Part shown: positions 11,205 to 32,943 of the stretch, one piece after another
Layout: every line of letters starts with the position of its first letter
Numbering within the stretch: the first letter of the stretch is position 1
Origin: Fidelibacterota bacterium
GTDB lineage: Bacteria; Fidelibacterota; Marinisomatia; Marinisomatales; UBA2128
Direction: 5' to 3'
Assembly (NCBI GenBank): GCA_046861645.1
Contig: JBHHUM010000010.1
Span: 1-51,874, forward strand
DNA length: 51,874 bases
Position numbers and translations under genes: made by a program
The notes under the pieces: model-generated
The model's input: the letters and a program-made list of their open reading frames with translations, nothing else
The model's database searches: none
Told to the model about the DNA's origin: nothing

Positions 11205-11648
11205 TCAGTTAGAATTTCTGCGGTAGATCATCAAGCGATGTAGAATTCCTGCCTCAGAGAATAACTCACCCTCTACCTGAAAGTCAAACCTTTCATAAAA
11301 AGGAATTACAGCTTTCTGAGCATGGAGGTAAACAGTTTCTTTAGAGTTAATATGCTCTAGAATAAACTCAAGTAACGCTTGACCTACTCCGATTCTCCTG
11401 CAATCCTTCAGGACAGCAAAACGCTCCAGTTTGATTCCCTTACCAGTTTTTCTCCACCGTGCTGTACCCACCGCTTTCCTACGGATATACGCAAGAACGT
11501 GTGAAGCTGTCTTATCAAAATTGTCCAGTTCCATCTGTGCAGGTACTTTTTGCTCCTCAATGAATACTGCTCTGCGAATGGAATAGGCTACCTCTAATTC
11601 TCTCTCTTCGGTAATCAGTTTTACGGTTATTGCAACGGATTTTTTCAT
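11205..11648 (-). CDS. GNAT N-acetyltransferase (ElaA/YjcF-like)
   Basis: IRRAVFIEEQKVP, LERFAVL, LHAQ..FYE..F.EAGILH. Confidence 0.9.
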   Translation of the reverse strand: MKKSVAITVKLITEERELEVAYSIRRAVFIEEQKVPAQMELDNFDKTASHVLAYIRRKAVGTARWRKTGKGIKLERFAVLKDCRRIGVGQALLEFILEHINSKETVYLHAQKAVIPFYERFDFQVEGELFSEAGILHRLMIYRRNSN

Positions 11649-12298
11649 CAGGGATTAAGAAATGCATAAAAGGTGATGGCCATAAAGATAAGAATTAAAC
11701 CCATAATATGCTTTTCATAACGCTCAAAAAAATGAAGTCGAACAACTTCAAATCCCTTCAAACCTAACTGAACCATTAGGACAATCCCTAATACCGTTAC
11801 TAAAAGATACGTCACCAGTACTATTAGAATGCCCTGCCATCCGGCTAAGCTGGCATTGAAGAAATAGGTATCAATCTCCATGCAAGGTGAAAAGAACATG
11901 GCAATAGCAATTGCCATTACAGCGGATCTTTTCTTTCTTTTAGTAACCTCACCTAAATGAATATGCCGGTGTTTATGATGCCGAATGTTATCCCGGATTC
12001 CTGCCAGTACATACATGAACCCAAAAATCAGAAAGATAACAGGTGCTACCATTTCCATAGCCGATTTACTTACTTCTGTCAACCTTACACCCAAAGCTCC
12101 AACCCAAACACCAATGAAGATCGAACTGGCTGTATGGGAAAAAGCTGCCAGAGCTGCAACTCTTAAGGAATGACCCTTATCCCAACCCTCAGATCTAGCC
12201 ATTACTACAATTGGCATCCAGTGGTTAGGGATAAGAAAATGGACTACGCTAAGAGCCAAGCTGCCTAAAAAAATATTCAATAACATGCCGTTTTCCAT
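11648..12298 (-). CDS. His-rich membrane protein, putative nickel/cobalt transporter
   Basis: HFLIPNHWMP, HHKHRHIH loop, FFSPCME, about 6 TM helices. Confidence 0.65.
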   Translation of the reverse strand: MENGMLLNIFLGSLALSVVHFLIPNHWMPIVVMARSEGWDKGHSLRVAALAAFSHTASSIFIGVWVGALGVRLTEVSKSAMEMVAPVIFLIFGFMYVLAGIRDNIRHHKHRHIHLGEVTKRKKRSAVMAIAIAMFFSPCMEIDTYFFNASLAGWQGILIVLVTYLLVTVLGIVLMVQLGLKGFEVVRLHFFERYEKHIMGLILIFMAITFYAFLNP

Positions 12299-12463: not shown

Positions 12464-13477
12464 TTACTTCGATGTCCACTGCAGGGCAAAGCCGAGATTA
12501 GTCTGACCTAAATCGGCACCCTTCATACCAACCACAACCGGACCCCCCAGAGAAATTGTAACACCATAGCGATCAGACAACTGCATTCCAATGGAACCCA
12601 AGAGCTGTATAAACCATCCACCTGTCGCATCACTCGGATTTTGAGTCTCCCGTCGATAAACAAGGGCAAGATAAGGTGTGATCTTTTTCCTAGAAAAGCG
12701 GTGATCAATGGTATAAGTAGTCAATTGCACTACTCTGTTGTTAGACACTCCTTCATGCTTTTCGTTCCCTATCTCAATATCAAGCAAACCCTGTACCCCG
12801 AGAGTTCTCTCATTTTTCCAATTAAGCCATATCTCCCCAACTGAGCGATTTAGGAGTCTTCCTTGGATAGGATAGCCAAGATTCCTACTGGATTGCACTG
12901 ACTCATCTGCGGTAGGGAGCACAACACCCTCGTTCAAAAAGAACTGAACTTTTGTGCTTTTAGTCCTAATAGGAAGATTCCACTTCAAGCCAATTCCCAT
13001 ATCACCTATCACCCATAATGCAGTACGATAGATCGGTACTTGAACCCACAGACTTAGTTGACGTTTCAAACCCAATCCAGCAGAAATTATTACACTCTCT
13101 ACTTCAGCTTTTAAATCCACCTTCTGATAATTCATTTTCTTGACGTGGAGCTGGGATCTGTTCAAAAACACTGCTATCTGGTACTGTCCTGGTTTCAAAC
13201 CAGTCACAAAAGTTTCTCCTGCAACGGTGGGGAGTAGACCTACATTCTGAACTGCTGATGTTCCTACTTCACTTCCTCCGACCGGAGGTGGTGGAGCGTT
13301 TCAGAGAGCGCACTGGCTTAGCAATCCATTAAAAGCTAAAAGTGTCAATATAAATGAAGAAATGAGAATACCAGAGTATCGATTGCACGTCCCTTGTTGT
13401 CTAAATAAAACTAATCTGATCGAAAAATTTTTCAACTTGATAGCATTAAGAATGACATATAATCTGTTTTGTTTCAT
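12464..13477 (-). CDS. Putative secreted/outer-membrane beta-barrel selenoprotein, CxxU motif (337 aa, U59)
   Basis: ATG 13477 overlaps upstream stop (ATGA). Frame reads ...AFNGLLSQ-C-A-L-TGA(13301-13303)-NAPPPPVGGSEVGTSAVQNVGLLPTVAGETFV and continues in frame into ORF 12464..13207. SECIS-like hairpin follows the TGA. Confidence 0.8.
13267..13296 (-). promoter_or_regulatory. Bacterial SECIS-like hairpin
   Basis: CTCCAC-CA-CCTCC[GGTC]GGAGG-AA-GTGAAG; loop starts 17 nt after the TGA and begins with G. Confidence 0.75.
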
Positions 13478-14475
13478 TCCTGGTGATGATGCCACAATGC
13501 TCTCAAACTAACAGCTAACGAAATTTGATCCAGTTGTGATCCATCAATTTTACGCCATACAGGAGTATTTAGTGATAATACCGCAGAGATTTTTTCGGAT
13601 ATTTCAACCTCTATTCCAATCATCCCCTCTAGTGAAGTACCACCAGAATTAACCACCCTTACCCCTTCCCAACTATCGGACTTCTCATACCAGATATTTG
13701 CTCTTAAATATGGAAAGACAACCTTGAAAACCGGGGTCTGACGGATTATGTGCAAACTTATAAAAACTTTTTGCCCCGGTTCGTACCCGAGGTTACTTTC
13801 TGTCCAGGGAAAATCATATCTCCCTGATGCTCCCAGTACCAAAGGAAACTCTGAGCGGTACCACCATTCAAAATATAGAGAAGATATCATTACCCCTTTA
13901 CCAAGGGCAAAATGACGATGCTGGAGTGAATCGGCTCCTTCCGAAAATGGATTTACTTTATAACTTTCCCCCGATGGAAGTGTAATATCTGTGCCAAAGA
14001 ATAGCTTAGTTCCTGGACCAAATGATTGATTCCTATAAAGCCAGCGTACCCCCAATACAATATCACCAAACCCCCTGATTGACTCTGTTCGATGGTGGTT
14101 GTCCTCATGCTCAGCTTCCTGATTCCAATCCAAGAAAGGAATAGTGGTAAGTAAATTCACCTTTGGTGTCAGTCCAAATACTAAGAAAGTATTAAACGTC
14201 TGAATTCTGATATCACCAAAGTGACTATCGACCCCATCACTGGAAATGTTTGTGTTTTGCCTGGTTGAAAATCTACTTGGTTCCAGACGGGAAATCATAT
14301 AGTCACCACCTATGACCCACTGTCCTTGGGATAGTCCTAGACCCTCTGTCCCACTTCCGACCGGAAGGGTGGGATTACTTCAGAGTGGTCACTGACCCTG
14401 AAGAAAAGGTTGAGTAAAAACTATTAGAAAAATAAATAGTATAGTCCCAATTAAATGACTCAATCTTTTACGCAT
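13474..14475 (-). CDS. Putative secreted/outer-membrane beta-barrel selenoprotein, UxxU motif (333 aa, U29 and U32)
   Basis: AGGAAG RBS and ATG 14475; signal peptide MRKRLSHLIGTILFIFLIVFTQPFLQG; then Q-TGA(14389-14391)-P-L-TGA(14380-14382)-SNPTLPVGSGTEGLGLSQGQWVIGGDY in frame into ORF 13474..14298. GFGDIVLGVRW and TLPSG motifs resemble 'transporter' (PF13557-like) barrels; His-rich EHEDNHHR loop. Confidence 0.82.
14350..14373 (-). promoter_or_regulatory. Bacterial SECIS-like hairpin
   Basis: CCCA-CC-CTTCC[GGTC]GGAAG-TGGG; loop starts 17 nt after the second TGA and 26 nt after the first. Confidence 0.78.
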
Positions 14476-14586
14476 GATAGACTTCTTCCTACGATTTGAA
14501 ATTACATCCTTCGTTAAGTGCAAAACCGTGTCAGGTTTGGAAGTTGTGTTCAGCTGGAATTCCCACGAATACCATAATGCCAACGC

Positions 14587-14729: not shown

Positions 14730-15125
14730 TCAGCTTGTATAAATCAGCTTTTGAGTTTCCGATTGATGAAAAATCATTTCAATAAGTTCGCAAGCTTTTT
14801 TACTCTCCTCATTGTGCTCCAGACGATAATAAATAGTCATTCCGTCTCTTCTGTTGGTAACTAAACCACGATCTCTCAGCCGCCTGAGCTGATGGGAAAT
14901 CGCAGACACATCTTTATTAAGAACATCTGCCAGATCGCAGACGCAGAGTTCCTCCCCTTCCGCCAAAGCATAAAGAATCTTCAAACGGGTCCCATTTCCC
15001 AGCATGGCCAAAATCTCAGCCAATCGATTCAAATCTCTCTGCTGAGTCAATTGTGACTGGAGAAACATCAGCTTCTTATGATCTACATAGGATCGGATAC
15101 ATGATCTTTCAAAAGTGTCTGTCAT
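14730..15125 (-). CDS. ArsR/SmtB family metal-sensing repressor (CadC-like)
   Basis: RLKILYAL, ELCVCDLA metal site, SAISHQLRRL, N-terminal Cys. Confidence 0.92.
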   Translation of the reverse strand: MTDTFERSCIRSYVDHKKLMFLQSQLTQQRDLNRLAEILAMLGNGTRLKILYALAEGEELCVCDLADVLNKDVSAISHQLRRLRDRGLVTNRRDGMTIYYRLEHNEESKKACELIEMIFHQSETQKLIYTS

Positions 15126-15143: not shown

Positions 15144-15653
15144 CTAGTTCTCAATTGATACCACTTTTGTCTTTAGATAAGTTTTCCTGACATCTCCCAG
15201 ACAACATCTTCCCTTAGGATTCAGTATTTCACAGGAACACAAGTCTTTCCTGACCTTTTCACGTATCTCATCCTCAATTGTTGAATGATTATTTTTCACA
15301 AAATCCTGCTCAATTTCTGACCGGGTATGTTGAAAACAATAACACACTAAGAGTGGTTCTACTTTCTCTTTTAGCCCAACACGAACCAATAAGTCTAATT
15401 TGTTAATTACAAGATTATTGTCTGGAATATAGTATACCGTAGAGTCTTCAGGATTGGTACAATAGAAACCATCTGTTATTTTATTATAATCCGACCATTG
15501 CTCACTTGTTAAGGCTTTTATAGTGATTGCCTTCACTGGAAGACCTTTTATTCCACATGTTGGACAGAAACCGTTTCTCCTTACGTCTTTTTCTGATAGG
15601 ATTGTGCAGCAATCAATCTCTGCAACATCACCGTTCAACTTATGATTCTCCAT
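15144..15653 (-). CDS. Cys-rich CopZ N-terminal-like (zinc / 2Fe-2S BFD-like) metallochaperone
   Basis: CC, CPTCG, VCYCF, CSCEILNPKGRCC; ATG 15653 preceded by a GGGAAG purine run. Confidence 0.8.
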   Translation of the reverse strand: MENHKLNGDVAEIDCCTILSEKDVRRNGFCPTCGIKGLPVKAITIKALTSEQWSDYNKITDGFYCTNPEDSTVYYIPDNNLVINKLDLLVRVGLKEKVEPLLVCYCFQHTRSEIEQDFVKNNHSTIEDEIREKVRKDLCSCEILNPKGRCCLGDVRKTYLKTKVVSIEN

Positions 15654-16239
15654 TAACTTCCCTTTTCCCTCCAGAAATAGCACGATAGCCCATCTTTTTC
15701 ACAAAGGATTCGATTTCATCTTTGGTTACTGTTTGCTGATTGAATGTACAGACCATCGTCTTATTATTATAGTTTACTTGGCAACTGACAATACCCTCAA
15801 CAGCATTCAAACCTTTTTCCAGACCCAAAGCACATCCATTGCAGGTCATACCTTCTACATTCCAAACTTCAACTTCTTCCCCTTTACTCTTACTCTCGCC
15901 TTCTTCTGCAAAAAGATCATATCCAAAATATGGAAACAAGAGTAGAGCGATCACCAGAGGCGTAATTCCCAAAAGTATCCGTTTTTGATTTTTCTTATGC
16001 TTCATGGAATTCTCCTTATCCAAATCACAACATGCCTCGTCTTCACTTTTCCTGAATAACCTTACATAGCCCCAACCTAACATTCCCAAAGCTAAGAGAG
16101 AAAAGTAGGGTCGTATGGGTTCAATAAAAGCAAACATACCTAACGAAGTTGAGCCAACTGAAAGAGCGATTAATGGTCCTGTACAGCAGAGCGTCGCCCC
16201 AAAAGCAGCCAGGACAGATGTAATTACCGTTTTCATCAT
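15640..16239 (-). CDS. MerT-like mercury transporter fused to an HMA (MerP/CopZ) domain
   Basis: ATLCCTGP in TM1, EPIRPY, ACCD loop, C-terminal VEGMTCNGC. Confidence 0.88.
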   Translation of the reverse strand: MMKTVITSVLAAFGATLCCTGPLIALSVGSTSLGMFAFIEPIRPYFSLLALGMLGWGYVRLFRKSEDEACCDLDKENSMKHKKNQKRILLGITPLVIALLLFPYFGYDLFAEEGESKSKGEEVEVWNVEGMTCNGCALGLEKGLNAVEGIVSCQVNYNNKTMVCTFNQQTVTKDEIESFVKKMGYRAISGGKREVNGES

Positions 16240-16342: not shown

Positions 16343-17215
16343 CTAAGGAAATATTGCAGATTGTTCCTTTGGGAATAAGGTGTAGAGCAAATCTTTGCTT
16401 GTGACATCGCCCTTCTGGATAGCAGCATGTATATAGACAACAGGACAACCACAAGCCTCACAGGAGGCATTCTCTGCAAAAGTACACGGCTTCTTCACAT
16501 TAAAATGGACATCAAAGGCAATTGCTGTATCTCGATAAATGCAGTTTTTTGAAATTTCCTTACAGTAACTTGATCTAAACAATTCTATAGCTTCACGGGA
16601 ATGCAGCAGAATACCGGGATGTTCATTATGTAACTTTAGCAGCTCATCTACAGCTTGATCTCTCCTTTTTAAATCGACTCGTAATGGGTCTTTTGGTCTA
16701 CCTACATGAAACCCAACCAGGACTCCTAAAGCCCCGGTGGATCGAACAAGATTCGGGAGGAGATTAATGTAATCAACTGTAATAGAAGTGAAAGTTGTAG
16801 CCAGGGCGAAAGAACCTCTGTCAAGATTATTGATATTTTGAAGGGCTAAATCGAAAGTTCCCTTACCACGTAAACTATCGTGTACATCCTGAGGACCTTC
16901 AATCGAAACTAAGAGTCCTCCTGATAAACCTGTTGGGATCGGAACTACTCCGGAAGTAGCCACGGCATTCCGGGAGAATAGCCTCATAGCTTGCTGCAGG
17001 AGAGTTGGTTTCAACAATGGTTCCCCTCCAATCCAGAATGCTGAGCGAATACCATAACTGTCACGGACATTTTTAAGTCTGAGCAAAAATTCTTCATCAC
17101 TTAAATCAGTAGGTATATGAGATATATTCGTATAGAAATAGCAATGTTGACATCTTAAAGGACACTCACTAGTGAGATCAAAAATACCAATTGGTCGATT
17201 CTGCAGATTCATCAC
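16343..17215 (-). CDS. Radical SAM protein with Cys-rich C-terminus
   Basis: CPLRCQHC, GGEPLL, HDSLRGKGTF; C-terminal C...C.....CEACGC. Confidence 0.88.
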   Translation of the reverse strand: MMNLQNRPIGIFDLTSECPLRCQHCYFYTNISHIPTDLSDEEFLLRLKNVRDSYGIRSAFWIGGEPLLKPTLLQQAMRLFSRNAVATSGVVPIPTGLSGGLLVSIEGPQDVHDSLRGKGTFDLALQNINNLDRGSFALATTFTSITVDYINLLPNLVRSTGALGVLVGFHVGRPKDPLRVDLKRRDQAVDELLKLHNEHPGILLHSREAIELFRSSYCKEISKNCIYRDTAIAFDVHFNVKKPCTFAENASCEACGCPVVYIHAAIQKGDVTSKDLLYTLFPKEQSAIFP

Positions 17216-17301: not shown

Positions 17302-18036
17302 TTAGAGAGTAAGTATTGAATCCTCGGAAAAAAGGACTTGTGGTGATAAGCCCAACTGTTCATAAAGTCCTGGTGGTACGCCAATATCAGCTAAATAAAG
17401 TTGACCAGTATAATCTTTTGCACCCGGTGTCAAAAGACCCTTCTTGGGTAAAGCAAGGGTCATGGTGGCACATGCGCGGATACAGGACTTGTATGGCTTA
17501 CCCGTTGTAGAATCTAGTCCAGAGGGGACATCCAGAGAAAGAACTTGGGTATTCCCAGAACGGTTAATTTCGTCAAGTACATGAGCAGCAACTCCCCGGG
17601 GTTCACCGTAGAGACCGTACCCTATGATCGCATCTATGATTAGATTAGATTTGTAAAATACCTCCAACCTATTACTTATGTCAGCCAAGATGATTTTTAT
17701 TGGGAGCTTTTTCAAGGTTAACCAGCGGACTTTTGGAATCGTCTTAAGTTTAGAAGGTGGAGTTGCTAAAATAACTGTCACCTGAACCCCCCTATTGTAG
17801 AGGTAGCGGGCAGCAACCATCCCTCCACCACCGTTATTTCCCCCTCCACAGGTGACTACAATATTGTGCAATCCCAATCCATCCAGGAGCCTCAAAGCCA
17901 AATCAGCTAAATTTCGCCCAGCGCTCTCCATCATCTGCTCTAAGGAAATCTTATATTCTTCAATCATAAGGCGATCCACTTCGCGCATCTGGTCAGCCGT
18001 TATAGCAGGTAGTGAAACTTTATTCATGAAAGTCAT
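17302..18036 (-). CDS. nnrE: NAD(P)H-hydrate epimerase (stand-alone YjeF_N)
   Basis: QMREVD, MMESAG, CGGGNNGGGG, IDAIIGYG, SLDVPSG, ADIGVP. Confidence 0.9.
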   Translation of the reverse strand: MTFMNKVSLPAITADQMREVDRLMIEEYKISLEQMMESAGRNLADLALRLLDGLGLHNIVVTCGGGNNGGGGMVAARYLYNRGVQVTVILATPPSKLKTIPKVRWLTLKKLPIKIILADISNRLEVFYKSNLIIDAIIGYGLYGEPRGVAAHVLDEINRSGNTQVLSLDVPSGLDSTTGKPYKSCIRACATMTLALPKKGLLTPGAKDYTGQLYLADIGVPPGLYEQLGLSPQVLFSEDSILTL

Positions 18037-18299: not shown

Positions 18300-19019
18300 T
18301 TAGTTGTTGGCTTCAATCACCAAATCAAGGACAGCCTCTTCTCCAGGAACAATCTCTACAGTTCTAACCGCTTTCCCCAATCCTTCATGCCAAAAGTGAA
18401 TCTTCTGTGTACCATTATTTATACCCTCAAGCCGAAATTGTCCATTCGAATCGGTGATAGTATAAGCAGCGTTTTTCAACAGGAGAACGTATCCGTTCAT
18501 CCACTTATGAACATCACATCGAAAGCTTACGACATTATCCTCTGTTTCCAGTTTGTGCTGTAATTTCTTTTTGAAACCAGGTTGAGCAAGGTTAAAAAGA
18601 GTCTCTTTTTCGCTGTCGTAAACGTGAACGTTATGGAGAATACCATCATTGTTCACAAATTCAAGAATTGCACCAGGTGACCCAACTTGAACATGAGGAA
18701 CATATCTACAATTAATCTGAGAGACGGTTATCACAGTATTATCTTGCGATATTGATTGTTCCTCAGACGGCCTTTCCCAAAATACTATAACATTGGTTAA
18801 ACCATGAGTAACAGGATCCACTACGAATTCTTCATCCAGAATTCTGTGACCACAGACCCCCTGATCAGTCGTGATGGTAATATTGGTTTGGGGAGGGAAA
18901 GTACCAGCAAACCCCACGAATCCTATAACGGCACCTTCTTCCTGGGCAAACCCTATATTCATAATGAACAAGGGAATTCCTAAAAGCCACTTATTAGAGC
19001 GTAGAAGGGTACTATTCAT
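18300..19019 (-). CDS. Secreted cupredoxin-like / carboxypeptidase-regulatory-like domain protein
   Basis: Signal peptide, HNVH and CDVHKWM (type-1 copper-like ligands), TDSNGQFRLEG. Confidence 0.75.
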   Translation of the reverse strand: MNSTLLRSNKWLLGIPLFIMNIGFAQEEGAVIGFVGFAGTFPPQTNITITTDQGVCGHRILDEEFVVDPVTHGLTNVIVFWERPSEEQSISQDNTVITVSQINCRYVPHVQVGSPGAILEFVNNDGILHNVHVYDSEKETLFNLAQPGFKKKLQHKLETEDNVVSFRCDVHKWMNGYVLLLKNAAYTITDSNGQFRLEGINNGTQKIHFWHEGLGKAVRTVEIVPGEEAVLDLVIEANN

Positions 19020-19021
19020 TT

Positions 19022-20083
19022 TTATTTAAACCTCCACTTTTTCTTCTTGGGGGCAAGAGTTCTTAGAAATACCAATAGATCACTCATTTCGCTATCGGTC
19101 ATATTATTATCCCAACGTGGACAGGAAAACATAGGTGGTTCATTATTGTTAAGAGATGGTGGGGTAGATCCTTCCTTTATCGTTTTAATAATCTCAGCAT
19201 CCGATAACCTGTTCGTTACTCCCCATAACTTTGGTATTCTTTCATCAGGGGCTGCATTGGGATTCTTATCCGGTTTACGGCCTTCCTTTCCATGACACCC
19301 CCAACAGCCAAAGCGCTGGTAAACTAACTTACCTGACTGGACTTGTGACCCACCTAAAAAGAACATGGCGCGACCTTCCCAAAGCTGTCCTTTACGATTA
19401 TGTTGACCCTGTAATGTATGAAGATAGGCTGAAAGTGCTACTGCTTCGTCTTCTGATAAAGCGAAGTTTGGCATAAAAGTATCTGGTTTCCAGGCCTGGG
19501 GGTTTTTTAGCCAGGCAACCTCCCATGCTTGTGGCTTACGTTTTCCTATCCAGGTAAGGTCAACTCCAATAAACCGTCCTTCGTCACCTATCCGGTGGCA
19601 CGCCTTACAACCATATTCTTCTAACAACTGCCGGCCTTTTTCTGTAATTCCCATCTCTGCTGCTAAAATAGTTTCTGATGGGATTTTCTTCTTTAGCTTA
19701 TCTAAATAACCCACCAATACGTCGATCTCCACCTTAGTGAATTGAAAGTTAGGCATTTTTGTCCCTGGTTTTACCGCATTCGGATCTTGTAACCACTTCC
19801 GCAGCCATTCCTCAGATCGGCGATTTGACACTTGGTCGAGGATTGGACCTACGGTTCCACCCCGGTTACCAATAGTATGGCAGGATAGACAAGACCTTTC
19901 ATTCACGATTTTGCTCTGCTGAAACGCTACTACTGCAGATGTAAAAGAGGTTTGATTAGATTCAGGTTTCTCATCTGAGGAAATCATCTCCATTTCCATT
20001 GAAGAAACCTTGCCACCACATCCTCCCAGGAGCAGAAGAAGCAAAAGTTCTCCCGCTCCTTTTTTAAAAAAGGTAATTATCAT
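19022..20083 (-). CDS. Triheme c-type cytochrome lipoprotein
   Basis: LLGGC lipobox; CLSCH, CKACH, CWGCH; two PxTxMPNF Met-ligand motifs. Confidence 0.85.
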   Translation of the reverse strand: MIITFFKKGAGELLLLLLLGGCGGKVSSMEMEMISSDEKPESNQTSFTSAVVAFQQSKIVNERSCLSCHTIGNRGGTVGPILDQVSNRRSEEWLRKWLQDPNAVKPGTKMPNFQFTKVEIDVLVGYLDKLKKKIPSETILAAEMGITEKGRQLLEEYGCKACHRIGDEGRFIGVDLTWIGKRKPQAWEVAWLKNPQAWKPDTFMPNFALSEDEAVALSAYLHTLQGQHNRKGQLWEGRAMFFLGGSQVQSGKLVYQRFGCWGCHGKEGRKPDKNPNAAPDERIPKLWGVTNRLSDAEIIKTIKEGSTPPSLNNNEPPMFSCPRWDNNMTDSEMSDLLVFLRTLAPKKKKWRFK

Positions 20084-20163
20084 GAAGGGGCCTTTTTGAT
20101 TTACCCTGTTAGAACCTGTTGTTAGTGCAGGAATTAACTAGATTCCATTAGAATGGGTTCAGA

Positions 20164-20760
20164 TTACATGCCTCCCATTTTACCAGGTTCAACGGCAACA
20201 CCTTTACTTAAAGATGTGACATAAAGTGCCAGAGCATGCGACTCCTTGCCATTCAAAGGTAGACGTTCTCCACCAACAAACATGGCCACACAATTGTTAT
20301 TCATTTGTGCCAGGCTGATAACGGAGGCGTTAGGAACCTTAAACTTCGGGAAGGTAGCTGCTGACCCATGCAGATCTGGAATGGGGATCTTCCAACCCTG
20401 AAAACCCATCATGGGTGGAATCTCAGCTTCACCACCGGTTGATCCACCACCTGGATGGCAGTCTACACAAGCTACCCCCCGTTTTGCCCCACTCAAGGAA
20501 GGATCATTGAACAGTTTCTCACCATAAGCTATCGCATCGTTCTGGGCTTTCATTACCATCTGTTTCATCTGCTCCATGTTACCCATCATCTTCATGCCCA
20601 TATCGATATTCTTGAGGGCTTCTCCCATCTGTAGGGGAGGATCGGCTTCGGTTTTTACAGGTGCCGGAGCTGCCGTCGATTCCGGGGCGGTAGTACAACT
20701 GATGATTGTGGTCAGTACAGCACCAATTGCTAAAAATGATACATTTCTCAGTGAATTCAT
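20164..20760 (-). CDS. Monoheme SoxA/TsdA-like cytochrome c lipoprotein
   Basis: AAGGAG RBS; IISC lipobox; CVDCH; AATFPKF...SLAQMNNNC...ESHALALYV resembles the SoxA/TsdA Cys-ligand segment. Confidence 0.7.
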   Translation of the reverse strand: MNSLRNVSFLAIGAVLTTIISCTTAPESTAAPAPVKTEADPPLQMGEALKNIDMGMKMMGNMEQMKQMVMKAQNDAIAYGEKLFNDPSLSGAKRGVACVDCHPGGGSTGGEAEIPPMMGFQGWKIPIPDLHGSAATFPKFKVPNASVISLAQMNNNCVAMFVGGERLPLNGKESHALALYVTSLSKGVAVEPGKMGGM

Positions 20761-20835
20761 CTCACATCTCCTTTTCTTCGTCAATTGACATTAGGATTCT
20801 CATCAAAAACATATTCTGGGAGAGGTATGAAAAAC

Positions 20836-20851
20836 TGTCGTCTAAGCGACA
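20836..20851. promoter_or_regulatory. CooA-type Crp/Fnr box
   Basis: Perfect TGTCG-N6-CGACA; minus-strand TATGTT -10-like hexamer 22 nt downstream. Confidence 0.7.
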
Positions 20852-20894
20852 AATCAAAGTAGCTATACAAAAAGAAGATGAGCTGTAGAATTGT

Positions 20895-21998
20895 TCAGTT
20901 CTTCTTCAAAACAATTTCCCTCATTCGTTTCCGGCGCCGGGAGTCAATTGTATCCACAGCTCTTACAGCATATTCCTGTGCGGTATAAACCTGTTTCATC
21001 ACTGGTTCATCATCTCTTTTAGCAGCATCACCCACTACGAAAAGATTCTCTACTGATGTCTCACCCTTATAATCAATCCAGATATGGCGTTTCTCTTCAG
21101 TTTGATTTTGATCCATAAGTCTGGCACTTACCTGTCGGGCTAAATCATTATAAACCCTGTTCAACCCTAAGGATACCAGAGCAAATTTGACTTCAACCGA
21201 ATCGCCATTCTCAAAGACAAAGCCTCGCAGTTGTTTTACACCATCGCCCAGAAAATTTGCAATTAACGTAGGAATAACAACAATACTATATTTTTCTAAT
21301 ATCTTTTTTCGATTTTCTGAAATTACTGGTTTTTCTCCATTCGTCAGAACATAGACTTTAATCCCATAACGTTCGTGCAACATCATAGCTAATTCCGCTG
21401 CTACGTCTGTGTGCCCCAAAACAGCTACTGTATCGTCCTTAGTGAGATGTCCTTCACAACGGATGCAATAAAGCACCTGCTCCCGATTAGCAAAAGGATA
21501 TATCCACTTTGGTGATTCCTCCACCCTTCCGCTTTTCCCTTTTTTACGGAGGTATGGTTGTTGATCCATTACCCCTGTCGCCAGGACTACGGCTACTCCG
21601 GAGAACGATTGACTGGACGTACTCACTTCGAACCCTGAGCTCGCTCGTATCAGTGATAAGACTTCTTCCTCGATTATCTCCAGATCAGGATATCCTTCCT
21701 TAATCCTTTCTAGTGTGTTTCGAATAATAGCTCTATTGTTGATATGATAATGTTCACTTTCTACCAGGGCAGCAGCGTCGGGGAATCCTCCATTTCTAAG
21801 TGTCTTCTGTACTTGATCCTTGATGATATCTTCATGAAACCCTATGATGTTATCAAGGTTTACCACCCATTGTGATCGGCTTCGTTTACGTGTGAACTTG
21901 CTGCCCAAAATCCACACAGCTTTCATACCATTCTGAGCTGCCCTCAGGGCTGCTGCTGAGCCACCAATGCCACCCCCAATGATGATTACATCTTTCAT
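20895..21998 (-). CDS. Thioredoxin reductase-like FAD/NAD(P) oxidoreductase
   Basis: DVIIIGGGIGG, VLATG, YCIRCEG redox motif, TSVENLFVVGD. Confidence 0.85.
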   Translation of the reverse strand: MKDVIIIGGGIGGSAAALRAAQNGMKAVWILGSKFTRKRSRSQWVVNLDNIIGFHEDIIKDQVQKTLRNGGFPDAAALVESEHYHINNRAIIRNTLERIKEGYPDLEIIEEEVLSLIRASSGFEVSTSSQSFSGVAVVLATGVMDQQPYLRKKGKSGRVEESPKWIYPFANREQVLYCIRCEGHLTKDDTVAVLGHTDVAAELAMMLHERYGIKVYVLTNGEKPVISENRKKILEKYSIVVIPTLIANFLGDGVKQLRGFVFENGDSVEVKFALVSLGLNRVYNDLARQVSARLMDQNQTEEKRHIWIDYKGETSVENLFVVGDAAKRDDEPVMKQVYTAQEYAVRAVDTIDSRRRKRMREIVLKKN

Positions 21999-32353: not shown

Positions 32354-32943
32354 CTAGAGGAGAGATTGCCTACATACATCTTGACCTCGCCAATGTGGTC
32401 ATAAGTTTCAATATTAAGATGTAACTTGATAATTTTCTGCCTTTAATGATAATTTCTGATATACCTGCTCGCTGAATAACAGGTACGAATTATACCCCGT
32501 TGTATCTCTAATACTACTCTTCATCATCCTGTAAGCAAGAATCACATCAGAACCAAGAATCTCACTCCGGTCACCAATTGGTTTCACAAAAAAATCACCA
32601 CAATGAAAAAATCTTTAAATCTAAACTCGATATATGCACAGGCTTTGCAACTACTGGATGGATTTATTTGCATAACATCCATTTTCTCTGTAAAGGCTTG
32701 ATAAAGTTAATATATCTGCGAGAGGAGATCTTGCGTACTAGTAACATCTCTTTCTGGCACATACCATAAAATTGCATCTCACTGGAAATTAGAAATTTTA
32801 ACAGGTTGTGAAATAACTTTTAATTGAGCATTAAAAAGAGCTGCAATGATGAGATGGGCATGGTCCAACTCAGACTTAGTAAGAAAAATAGTATCTCCTC
32901 TAATATCCGTTATTATGAATCAACCGTTCTCTATGGCAGCCAA
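32354..32943 (-). pseudogene. Decayed DUF2652-like (nucleotide cyclase-fold) gene
   Basis: Manual translation: ENG*FIITDIRGDTIFLTKSELDHAHLII...ISNFQ*DAILWY...IY*LYQAF...SCKAC..[frameshift]..LGSDVILAYRMMK...TGYNSYLL...ETYDHIGEVKMYV; several stops and frameshifts. Confidence 0.72.

Follow-up and report, generated by a model that had tools for sequence, protein, structure and literature searches.

The minus strand of a contig from a Fidelibacterota bacterium (JBHHUM010000010.1, assembly GCA_046861645.1) carries four short open reading frames (ORFs) that would become two genes for secreted proteins if three in-frame TGA codons were read through, and the locus raises the question of whether these codons encode selenocysteine (Sec) and what such selenoproteins would do in the outer membrane. 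Positions 1 to 51,874 of the forward strand of this contig make up the window, by which we mean the whole stretch of DNA analyzed. The four ORFs called under translation table 11 (14389..14583, 13474..14298, 13301..13495, and 12464..13207) had been joined into two genes in the first-pass annotation, and translation of the minus strand with TGA as Sec (U) agrees with that assignment, giving the following features:

14475..13474, minus strand: gene 1, ATG at 14475, 333 codons, TGA stop at 13474-13476; predicted secreted 12-stranded outer-membrane barrel, very probably a selenoprotein, of the QUPLU type
13477..12464, minus strand: gene 2, 337 amino acids from ATG 13477, TAA stop at 12464-12466; QCALU type, probably a 12-stranded barrel
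14389-14391, minus strand: first putative Sec codon of gene 1, UGA, residue 29; cysteine (Cys) at this place in CPLU paralogs and in distant CxxC homologs
14380-14382, minus strand: second putative Sec codon of gene 1, UGA, residue 32; TGT (Cys) in relative L103, which has UALC
13310-13312, minus strand: Cys codon (TGC) of the gene 2 CxxU motif
13301-13303, minus strand: putative Sec codon of gene 2, UGA; Cys in homolog L043 (QCAMC)
13474-13477, minus strand: ATGA overlap of the gene 1 stop and the candidate gene 2 start (ATG 13475-13477)

Gene 1 reads MRKRLSHLIGTILFIFLIVFTQPFLQGQ-U-P-L-U-SNPTLPVGSGTEG..., with SNPTLPVG after the second U, and gene 2 reads ...ILISSFILTLLAFNGLLSQ-C-A-L-U-NAPPPPVGGSE..., with LLSQ preceding the Cys. 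The translation thus contains both motifs picked out earlier, Q-U-P-L-U in gene 1 and Q-C-A-L-U in gene 2. Gene 2 is a distant paralog of gene 1, with 20% identity over the full length (BLASTP, E 2e-9), and has six homologs in relatives. The ATGA overlap is present in the sequence, while the translational coupling proposed from it is plausible but not established, because the true start of gene 2 is uncertain. Initiation at ATG 13477 places a 54-residue leader ahead of Q55 of gene 2, compared with 14-19 residues in five of the six homologs and 38 in L045 (starts as picked), and GTG 13495 and an in-frame TTG are alternative starts.

The source genome (2.5 Mb, 184 contigs, 94% complete) encodes tRNA-Sec (selC; 63.9 bits against a cut-off of 47), selA (531 bits), selB (395 bits), and selD (390 bits), all above their cut-offs, so that each part of the Sec machinery that the first-pass annotation had proposed to confirm was found. 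The selD gene itself has one in-frame TGA; it lies at 25008-25934 of contig C34, and a second, short selD-like N-terminal piece, a 65-amino-acid frame that also has one TGA, lies ~6.5 kb away at 32445-32582. If the TGAs of the window genes did not encode Sec, they could be true stops, leaving four small ORFs or pseudogenes, or sequencing errors, or codons for Trp or Gly. TGA terminates 11 of the 42 window ORFs of at least 150 amino acids, as well as gene 1 itself, and therefore the codon has not been reassigned. The concern that raw reads might carry TGC or TGT is met by assemblies of four sequencing runs from the probable source sample (12-23x), which keep TGA at all three sites with no alternative base. 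These runs are not independent of the window, and their contigs differ from it only at 13461, 13608, 13837, 14254, and 14265. The listed runs that hold the stretch comprise only DNA runs, from one sample, with no RNA run among them.

Conservation of the TGAs among relatives bears directly on the same alternative. A gene 1 homolog occurs in 24 of 61 genomes of the same order, and all 19 translated loci from relatives contain GQ-U-x-x-U-[STG]-N-x-[ST]-L-P-V-G at 26-68% protein identity, with the two TGAs retained 9 nt apart in homologs down to 26% identity and the signal peptide upstream of them conserved in frame. When a profile of 18 full-length members was searched against 401 sampled genomes of the phylum, a homolog was found in 143 genomes and in 60 of 114 genera. 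Among the 150 matches listed (nine further matches lie outside the list), 131 have at least two in-frame TGAs (two or three), five have one, and 14 have none; the last all start at profile position 34 or later and therefore do not cover the N terminus. Metagenomes were scanned with a DNA pattern in which the third base of both codons could be A or G (TGA or TGG); at least 119 stretches matched, and in 80 of 80 loci from among these, representing 67 distinct sequences, both sites are TGA and never TGG. In the gene 2 family the UGA is kept in six of seven members. As judged from these sequence comparisons, the conserved TGA pattern is far beyond chance.

Some database entries appear at first to favor a stop or a Trp codon. 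Gene callers split the genes, and fragments of the barrel family in protein databases have W at both Sec sites (P0012, P0050, P0056, P0061, and others) or are truncated, beginning at the Leu of LPVG (MPVG...). One entry truncated at its N terminus, P0008, is named a hypothetical protein from a Candidatus Neomarinimicrobiota metagenome-assembled genome (NCBI), and is apparently the gene 1 homolog of genome G047, with an identical sequence at locus L026; in the taxonomy Candidatus Neomarinimicrobiota corresponds to the phylum Fidelibacterota, in the FCB group. Because only TGA is found at the DNA level, the W forms are most simply gene calls made under a code in which TGA is read as Trp.

The exchange of Sec and Cys among homologs further argues against the TGAs being stops or errors. 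The first-pass annotation had predicted Cys or TGA at these positions, and at the DNA level homologs indeed have one or the other, never Trp, Arg, or Gly. All four forms, UxxU, UxxC, CxxU, and CxxC, occur among relatives, with U-x-x-U the commonest. L103 has U-A-L-C with TGT, three paralogs (L100-L102; G088:C44, G251:C45, and G077:C19) have C-P-L-U, gene 2 and five of its homologs have C-x-x-U, and the gene 2 homolog L043 has C-A-M-C. Distant homologs were sought by profile among 1.84 billion representatives, with 525 matches at E ≤0.001 and 161 at ≤1e-10, and seven full-length homologs from this search have CPAC or CAAC (P0071, P0086, P0088, P0089, P0096, P0104, and P0112). Four of the seven have their first Cys immediately after a signal-peptidase site resembling A-x-A (AEA, LFA, ASA, or AVA). 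The Cys forms might alternatively be lipoproteins, with this Cys in a lipobox. Some homologs thus have Cys in place of Sec, the substitution that marks membership among bacterial selenoproteins.

Both genes also have a hairpin that resembles a selenocysteine insertion sequence (SECIS) directly 3′ of the UGAs, as would be expected for bacterial Sec:

14340..14390, minus strand: SECIS-like hairpin of gene 1, core at 14354-14367 (CUUCC-GGUC-GGAAG); the extended 51-nt stem takes in both UGAs
13275..13288, minus strand: SECIS-like hairpin core of gene 2 (CCUCC-GGUC-GGAGG), with loop and spacing as in gene 1

In both genes the core starts 12 nt after the last UGA and consists of the codons for the conserved L-P-V-G, which yield a stem-loop in every Sec form. 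Synonymous sites in these codons are constrained: the first 19 sequences use only CCG for this Pro and only GTC for this Val, although codon choice is free at other conserved Pro and Asn residues. In the set of 48 distinct sequences, changes in the Leu codon are matched by changes in the third base of the Gly codon and at the beginning of the codon after it, and the arm pairs observed are CUUCC/GGAAG, CUCCC/GGGAG, UUGCC/GGCAA, and CUACC/GGUAG. In this set the 6-bp helix has 90.6% of cells paired compared with 75.0% in shuffles, with 0 of 500 shuffles reaching the observed value, and a covariation score of 0.430 compared with 0.141 in shuffles and 0.04-0.11 when the partners are slid by 1-3 columns; the pair 30-39 is CG in 22 sequences, UA in 10, GC in 8, UG in 4, and AU in 2. 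The tetraloop is GGUC or AGUU, with G34 and U35 invariant, and an apical-loop G-U is what SelB recognizes in characterized bacterial SECIS elements. The 51-nt hairpin of gene 1 has a folding energy of -24.9 kcal/mol (z -2.13). L043, a Cys form, has P-A-G in this motif and no longer has the PVG codons of the hairpin, which has thus been lost together with Sec. The working stop function of TGA, its retention across the phylum and in metagenomes, its replacement by Cys, the in-frame signal peptide, the covarying hairpin, and the run assemblies all count against stops, errors, or a Trp or Gly codon, an explanation that we regard as extremely improbable. The three in-frame TGAs very probably encode Sec.

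The family was not recognized as a described one in the first-pass annotation, and it has no entry in NCBIfam, Pfam, or a 2026 catalogue. No NCBIfam or Pfam selenoprotein model matches the two proteins, and among the 119 prokaryotic selenoprotein families and subfamilies in Table 1 of the 2026 review there is no COG4313-like barrel and no outer-membrane UxxU protein (PMC13188914). The nearest entries in that table are a TonB-dependent receptor with an FCYXU motif, the MtrB/PioB-family barrel GSU2204, and a small UxxU metal-binding protein (PMC13188914). Full-text literature searches gave no description of UxxU outer-membrane barrel selenoproteins. The available main text of the Global Ocean Sampling study (PMC2398784) and of a 2016 comparative study (PMC5029168) does not mention the barrel family, although the supplements could hold unnamed candidates. 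With neither a catalogue entry nor a literature description, the family is therefore rated as apparently undescribed within the known selenoproteins and COG4313-like channels.

The proteins carry an export signal, and the Sec motif lies almost at the point where it ends:

14395..14475, minus strand: signal peptide of gene 1, residues 1-27, with a basic n-region and a hydrophobic core; cleavage predicted at G27/Q28 by the -3/-1 rule

Homologs have G, A, or S at position -1 and L or A at position -3, and the predicted cleavage site is separated from the motif by 0-1 residue. Cut before the invariant Gln, as the -3/-1 rule predicts, the mature protein would begin with Q-U-x-x-U. The Bacteroidetes Q-rule was considered as support for cleavage before Gln and dropped, since the available text of PMC5837995 indicates that it does not hold for the whole FCB group.

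A barrel with an N-terminal plug had been predicted for both proteins. The barrel stands, with both modeling as 12-stranded COG4313/FapF-type barrels, while the plug is proposed by analogy with the COG4313 structure. The AlphaFold2 model of gene 1, built from an 18-member alignment, has 12 strands, a mean predicted local distance difference test score (pLDDT) of 80.9, and a predicted template modeling score (pTM) of 0.76. Foldseek against the PDB places FapF first (E 4e-14, template modeling (TM) scores 0.62/0.71) and the COG4313 channel 4RL8 next (E 8e-11, TM 0.65/0.79). The model of gene 2, from a seven-sequence alignment, is weak (pLDDT 61) and also has 12 strands, and its Foldseek matches are outer-membrane barrels including 4RL8 (TMt 0.59-0.63), NanC, and FapF. 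At the sequence level, gene 1 has a marginal match to PF13557 (Phenol_MetA_deg), which scores 23 bits (cut-off 22) and spans just 74 residues. For gene 2, as for six of nine relatives scanned, Pfam returned nothing at E ≤0.01; P0071 alone of the nine hits PF13557, at 18.3 bits and below the cut-off. The clusters nearest the Cys-form relative P0096 in the ESM Atlas carry PF13557, and the sole NCBIfam match of the two window proteins is FilC (E 0.039).

In alignment A2 (18 members), H85, H127-H128-R129, and H186-x-H188-F189 are invariant, and nine of the 18 members have His-rich C-terminal tails. From the strand order of the model and the usual topology of outer-membrane barrels, the invariant histidines would lie in extracellular loops 1-3. 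The HHR and HxH histidines are missing from both gene 2 and the CPLU paralogs; in L100-L102 the HHR and HxHF motifs are absent, with DHK, EHK, or DHE at the HHR position, much as in gene 2.

The COG4313/PF13557 channel Pput2725 (PDB 4RL8) resembles the window proteins in being a 12-stranded barrel of similar size with an N-terminal segment before strand 1. It differs in that the available text of PMC4493636 describes no N-terminal Sec/Cys pair for COG4313, and in that the window family has the invariant HHR and HxHF motifs and adjoining metal genes. FapF (PDB 5O65/5O67) is also a 12-stranded barrel and is the best Foldseek match of gene 1, but it has only 10-12% sequence identity and no fap genes are nearby; we know of no Sec/Cys N-terminal motif in FapF. 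The catalogued Sec-carrying outer-membrane β-barrels share the presence of Sec in such a barrel, but have other folds and sizes and a single Sec that is not at the mature N terminus (Table 1, PMC13188914), and neither of their NCBIfam models matched either window protein in hmmscan at E ≤0.1. Closer in chemistry are NF041115 (UxxU, HMA type), NF045683 (MerT/CopZ fusion), and NF045877 (CopZ_Nterm_CU), which have a UxxU or Sec soft-metal site. These are small soluble or inner-membrane proteins, unlike the window barrels, which do not match their models; MerT, HMA, and CopZ N-terminal genes nonetheless adjoin the window barrels, there in Cys forms. The OprC/NosA-type copper transporters, outer-membrane barrels that bind copper via Cys, Met, and His, offer a functional analogy for a chalcogen-plus-His site; they are TonB-dependent, 22-stranded, and without Sec, and are not homologous to the window barrels.

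What the barrels may do is suggested by the genes that precede them:

14730..15125, minus strand: ArsR/SmtB-type metalloregulator, directly upstream of gene 1 (Pfam HTH_5, NCBIfam NF033788)
15144..15683, minus strand: putative Fe-S metallochaperone of the CopZ-N-terminal type, CC form (NF047645 at 104 bits against a cut-off of 100; PF18423)
15640..16239, minus strand: MerT-like membrane transporter fused to HMA (MerTP-like; PF02411 and PF00403; NF033556 at 121.7 bits, below the cut-off of 180)

The order of transcription is MerT-HMA, CopZ-type, ArsR/SmtB, gene 1, and gene 2. Beside gene 1 homologs in 20 loci from relatives, an ArsR gene recurs in seven, a MerTP-like gene in seven, and a CopZ-type gene in six. 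All three are present in five loci (L051, L052, L054, L056, and L059), while L053 lacks the CopZ-type gene and in L055 arsR is found on the downstream, not the upstream, side of gene 1; an eighth locus, L057, has weaker MerTP-like matches only, ~3 kb away. A gene 2 homolog follows in three of the 20 loci, and L056 has a weak match overlapping gene 1. In a divergent clade, B, at ~30% identity, two loci have as neighbors a TolC-like outer-membrane efflux protein (OEP) and a multicopper oxidase that contains a heavy-metal-binding domain, one of these loci (L058) also with a Cu/Zn superoxide dismutase (SodC), and one other clade B locus adjoins an HMA protein. The Cys-form homolog P0104 (442 amino acids, CPAC) itself ends in an HMA domain that bears a CGMC motif. 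NCBIfam includes Sec variants of these neighbor types (MerT_CopZ_Se, UxxU_metal_bind, and CopZ_Nterm_CU), and therefore such loci recruit selenium repeatedly. Together, the gene context and the conserved His point to a putative role in soft-metal handling.

These observations suggest a mechanism that begins at the ribosome. A single hairpin, with an upper stem of 5-6 bp and a G-U tetraloop, would recruit SelB and Sec-tRNA(Sec) and may decode both gene 1 UGAs, 9 nt apart, just as it would the one UGA in gene 2. The proteins would then be exported through the Sec translocon and lose their signal peptides, and the mature forms would begin Q-U-x-x-U (gene 1) and Q-C-x-x-U (gene 2). By analogy with the COG4313 channel, a 12-stranded barrel in which the first ~14 residues fold into the lumen and occlude it (PMC4493636), the ~24-residue N-terminal segment may sit in or below the barrel lumen. 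There the diselenol of gene 1 or the selenol-thiol pair of gene 2 could bind a soft metal, Cu(I) or Hg(II), acting with the five invariant histidines of the putative extracellular loops and the His-rich tail on the periplasmic side. Transfer of the metal between the cell exterior and the periplasm would follow, with the MerT-HMA inner-membrane transporter and the CopZ-type chaperone taking part under control of the ArsR/SmtB regulator. We have moderate confidence in this explanation as a whole, that is, in real selenoproteins of an undescribed 12-stranded barrel family with one-hairpin decoding and a soft-metal site served by His and a MerT-HMA/CopZ route. Its boldest form, a phylum-wide and essentially obligate di-Sec gate in the outer membrane, with a diselenol and His cluster of very high affinity and two UGAs decoded from a single SECIS, is a possibility that we put forward only tentatively.

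Several observations weigh against parts of this explanation. For decoding, folding energies are ordinary relative to mononucleotide shuffles (45-nt segments, z -0.1 to -1.5; gene 2, z -0.56), the RNAalifold consensus has just 4 bp on the first 19 sequences, with covariation clear only in the 48-sequence set, and Rfam searched up to E 10 gave no SECIS match, returning five weak and unrelated small-RNA hits of the snoRNA/sRNA kind (E 0.14-9.8). The first UGA of gene 1 also lies 21 nt from the core stem, a distance that exceeds the spacing in E. coli fdhF. For the plug, residues 21-43 of gene 1 have pLDDT <50, and its position is not modeled for that reason. For metals, many clade B loci have no metal context, their neighbors being trypsin-like, BNR, or housekeeping genes, and an ArsR-type regulator fits detoxification better than uptake. 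The best MerA match in the genome, at 336 bits, is not above the cut-off of 454, the MerTP match reaches 121.7 of 180 bits, and HgcA was not found in the 94% complete genome; with no MerA above cut-off and no HgcA, this is therefore not a classical mer operon or pathway. Characterized COG4313 channels, finally, are implicated in the uptake of hydrophobic molecules rather than metals, according to the available text of PMC4493636.

The last of these points, together with the metal-free clade B loci, leads to a different use of the same residues. The proteins would still be selenoproteins, but UxxU/CxxU would serve as a redox switch or as a catalytic diselenide or selenylsulfide, either gating a COG4313-like channel through which hydrophobic or sulfur compounds pass or belonging to an outer-membrane or periplasmic oxidoreductase. 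Most known CxxU/UxxC motifs sit in thiol-oxidoreductase-like proteins, according to the available text of PMC13188914. The COG4313 and FapF relatives move hydrophobic molecules or peptides and have a lumen occluded by the N terminus, and gene 2 and the CPLU paralogs, without the HHR and HxH histidines, would fit such a role. However, the proteins have no thioredoxin-like fold and the cluster has no partner reductase gene, while the ArsR, MerT-HMA, and CopZ-type genes recur beside gene 1 homologs in several families of the order, the five histidines are invariant and His-rich tails are present, and the Cys-form homolog P0104 is fused to HMA. We consider redox gating or catalysis unlikely, although it is the strongest competitor to soft-metal binding.

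The strictness of Sec in the family could be explained in a third way, in which the selenoproteins traffic chalcogens, capturing or relaying selenide, selenite, or polysulfide at the outer membrane. UxxU is almost never replaced by Cys in the phylum, with a single TGA in only four N-terminus-covering rows among the 150 matches listed. In addition, of the 401 genomes of the phylum 304 have selA, and by family the barrel occurs only where selA is found: families f12 (selA in 1/37, barrel in 0/37), f26 (0/33 and 0/33), and f25 (0/2 and 0/2) are without it. Several families have selA without the barrel (for example f28, 29/30 and 0/30), and one barrel-positive genome, G056 (92% complete), gave no selA match. 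The window also contains a cluster at 18300-21998 (minus strand) of a multi-haem cytochrome c, a SoxA/TsdA-like cytochrome, and a 367-amino-acid flavin adenine dinucleotide (FAD)-dependent pyridine-nucleotide-disulphide oxidoreductase, possibly for sulfur-compound oxidation. Against this, any Sec protein needs selA, so that the co-occurrence is not specific. In the 20 loci, moreover, the barrel has no linked gene specific to selenium or sulfur, and the neighboring genes point to metals. Chalcogen trafficking thus seems to us improbable. In the soft-metal explanation that we prefer, the near absence of Cys in place of Sec-x-x-Sec within the phylum argues for chemistry beyond that of cysteine, for example Cu(I) or Hg(II) binding against sulfide competition.

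The locus would add a new selenoprotein family to an abundant and mostly uncultured marine phylum, where current annotation lists its members as truncated hypothetical proteins, the UGAs having been taken by gene callers for stops or for Trp codons. The very N terminus of an exported outer-membrane barrel is an unusual place for selenium. The genes may also provide a test case for recoding, in which one bacterial SECIS would serve two nearby UGAs and Sec insertion would be combined with Sec-translocon export, and the motif and hairpin form a simple DNA signature with which annotation of marine metagenomes could be corrected. If the proposed role is correct, the family would be the first outer-membrane metal channel to work through selenium. 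It would then also go far to explain the retention of the Sec machinery in Fidelibacterota (Marinimicrobia/SAR406), and would tie the demand for selenium in the sea to the cycling of copper or mercury.

Other genes surround the cluster. Directly downstream of gene 2, at 11648-12298 (minus strand), lies a gene for a 216-amino-acid membrane protein with the sequence HHKHRHIH, which has no Pfam match above cut-off (YtpI, 25.6 bits compared with 29.4) and no NCBIfam match, and which tblastn did not find beside homologs in the 20 loci from relatives. In L052 (9200-10320) and L055 (3990-4850) the merTP-like and CopZ-type genes are split between frames, possibly through assembly error or decay. The splits were considered as further Sec genes and rejected, those in L052 being frame changes rather than in-frame TGAs and those in L055 apparently likewise. 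Just upstream of merTP in the window are genes for a radical SAM protein (16343-17215, minus strand) and a YjeF_N protein resembling NAD(P)HX epimerase (17302-18036, minus strand), and the position of YjeF_N is retained in L051, L052, L053, and L055.

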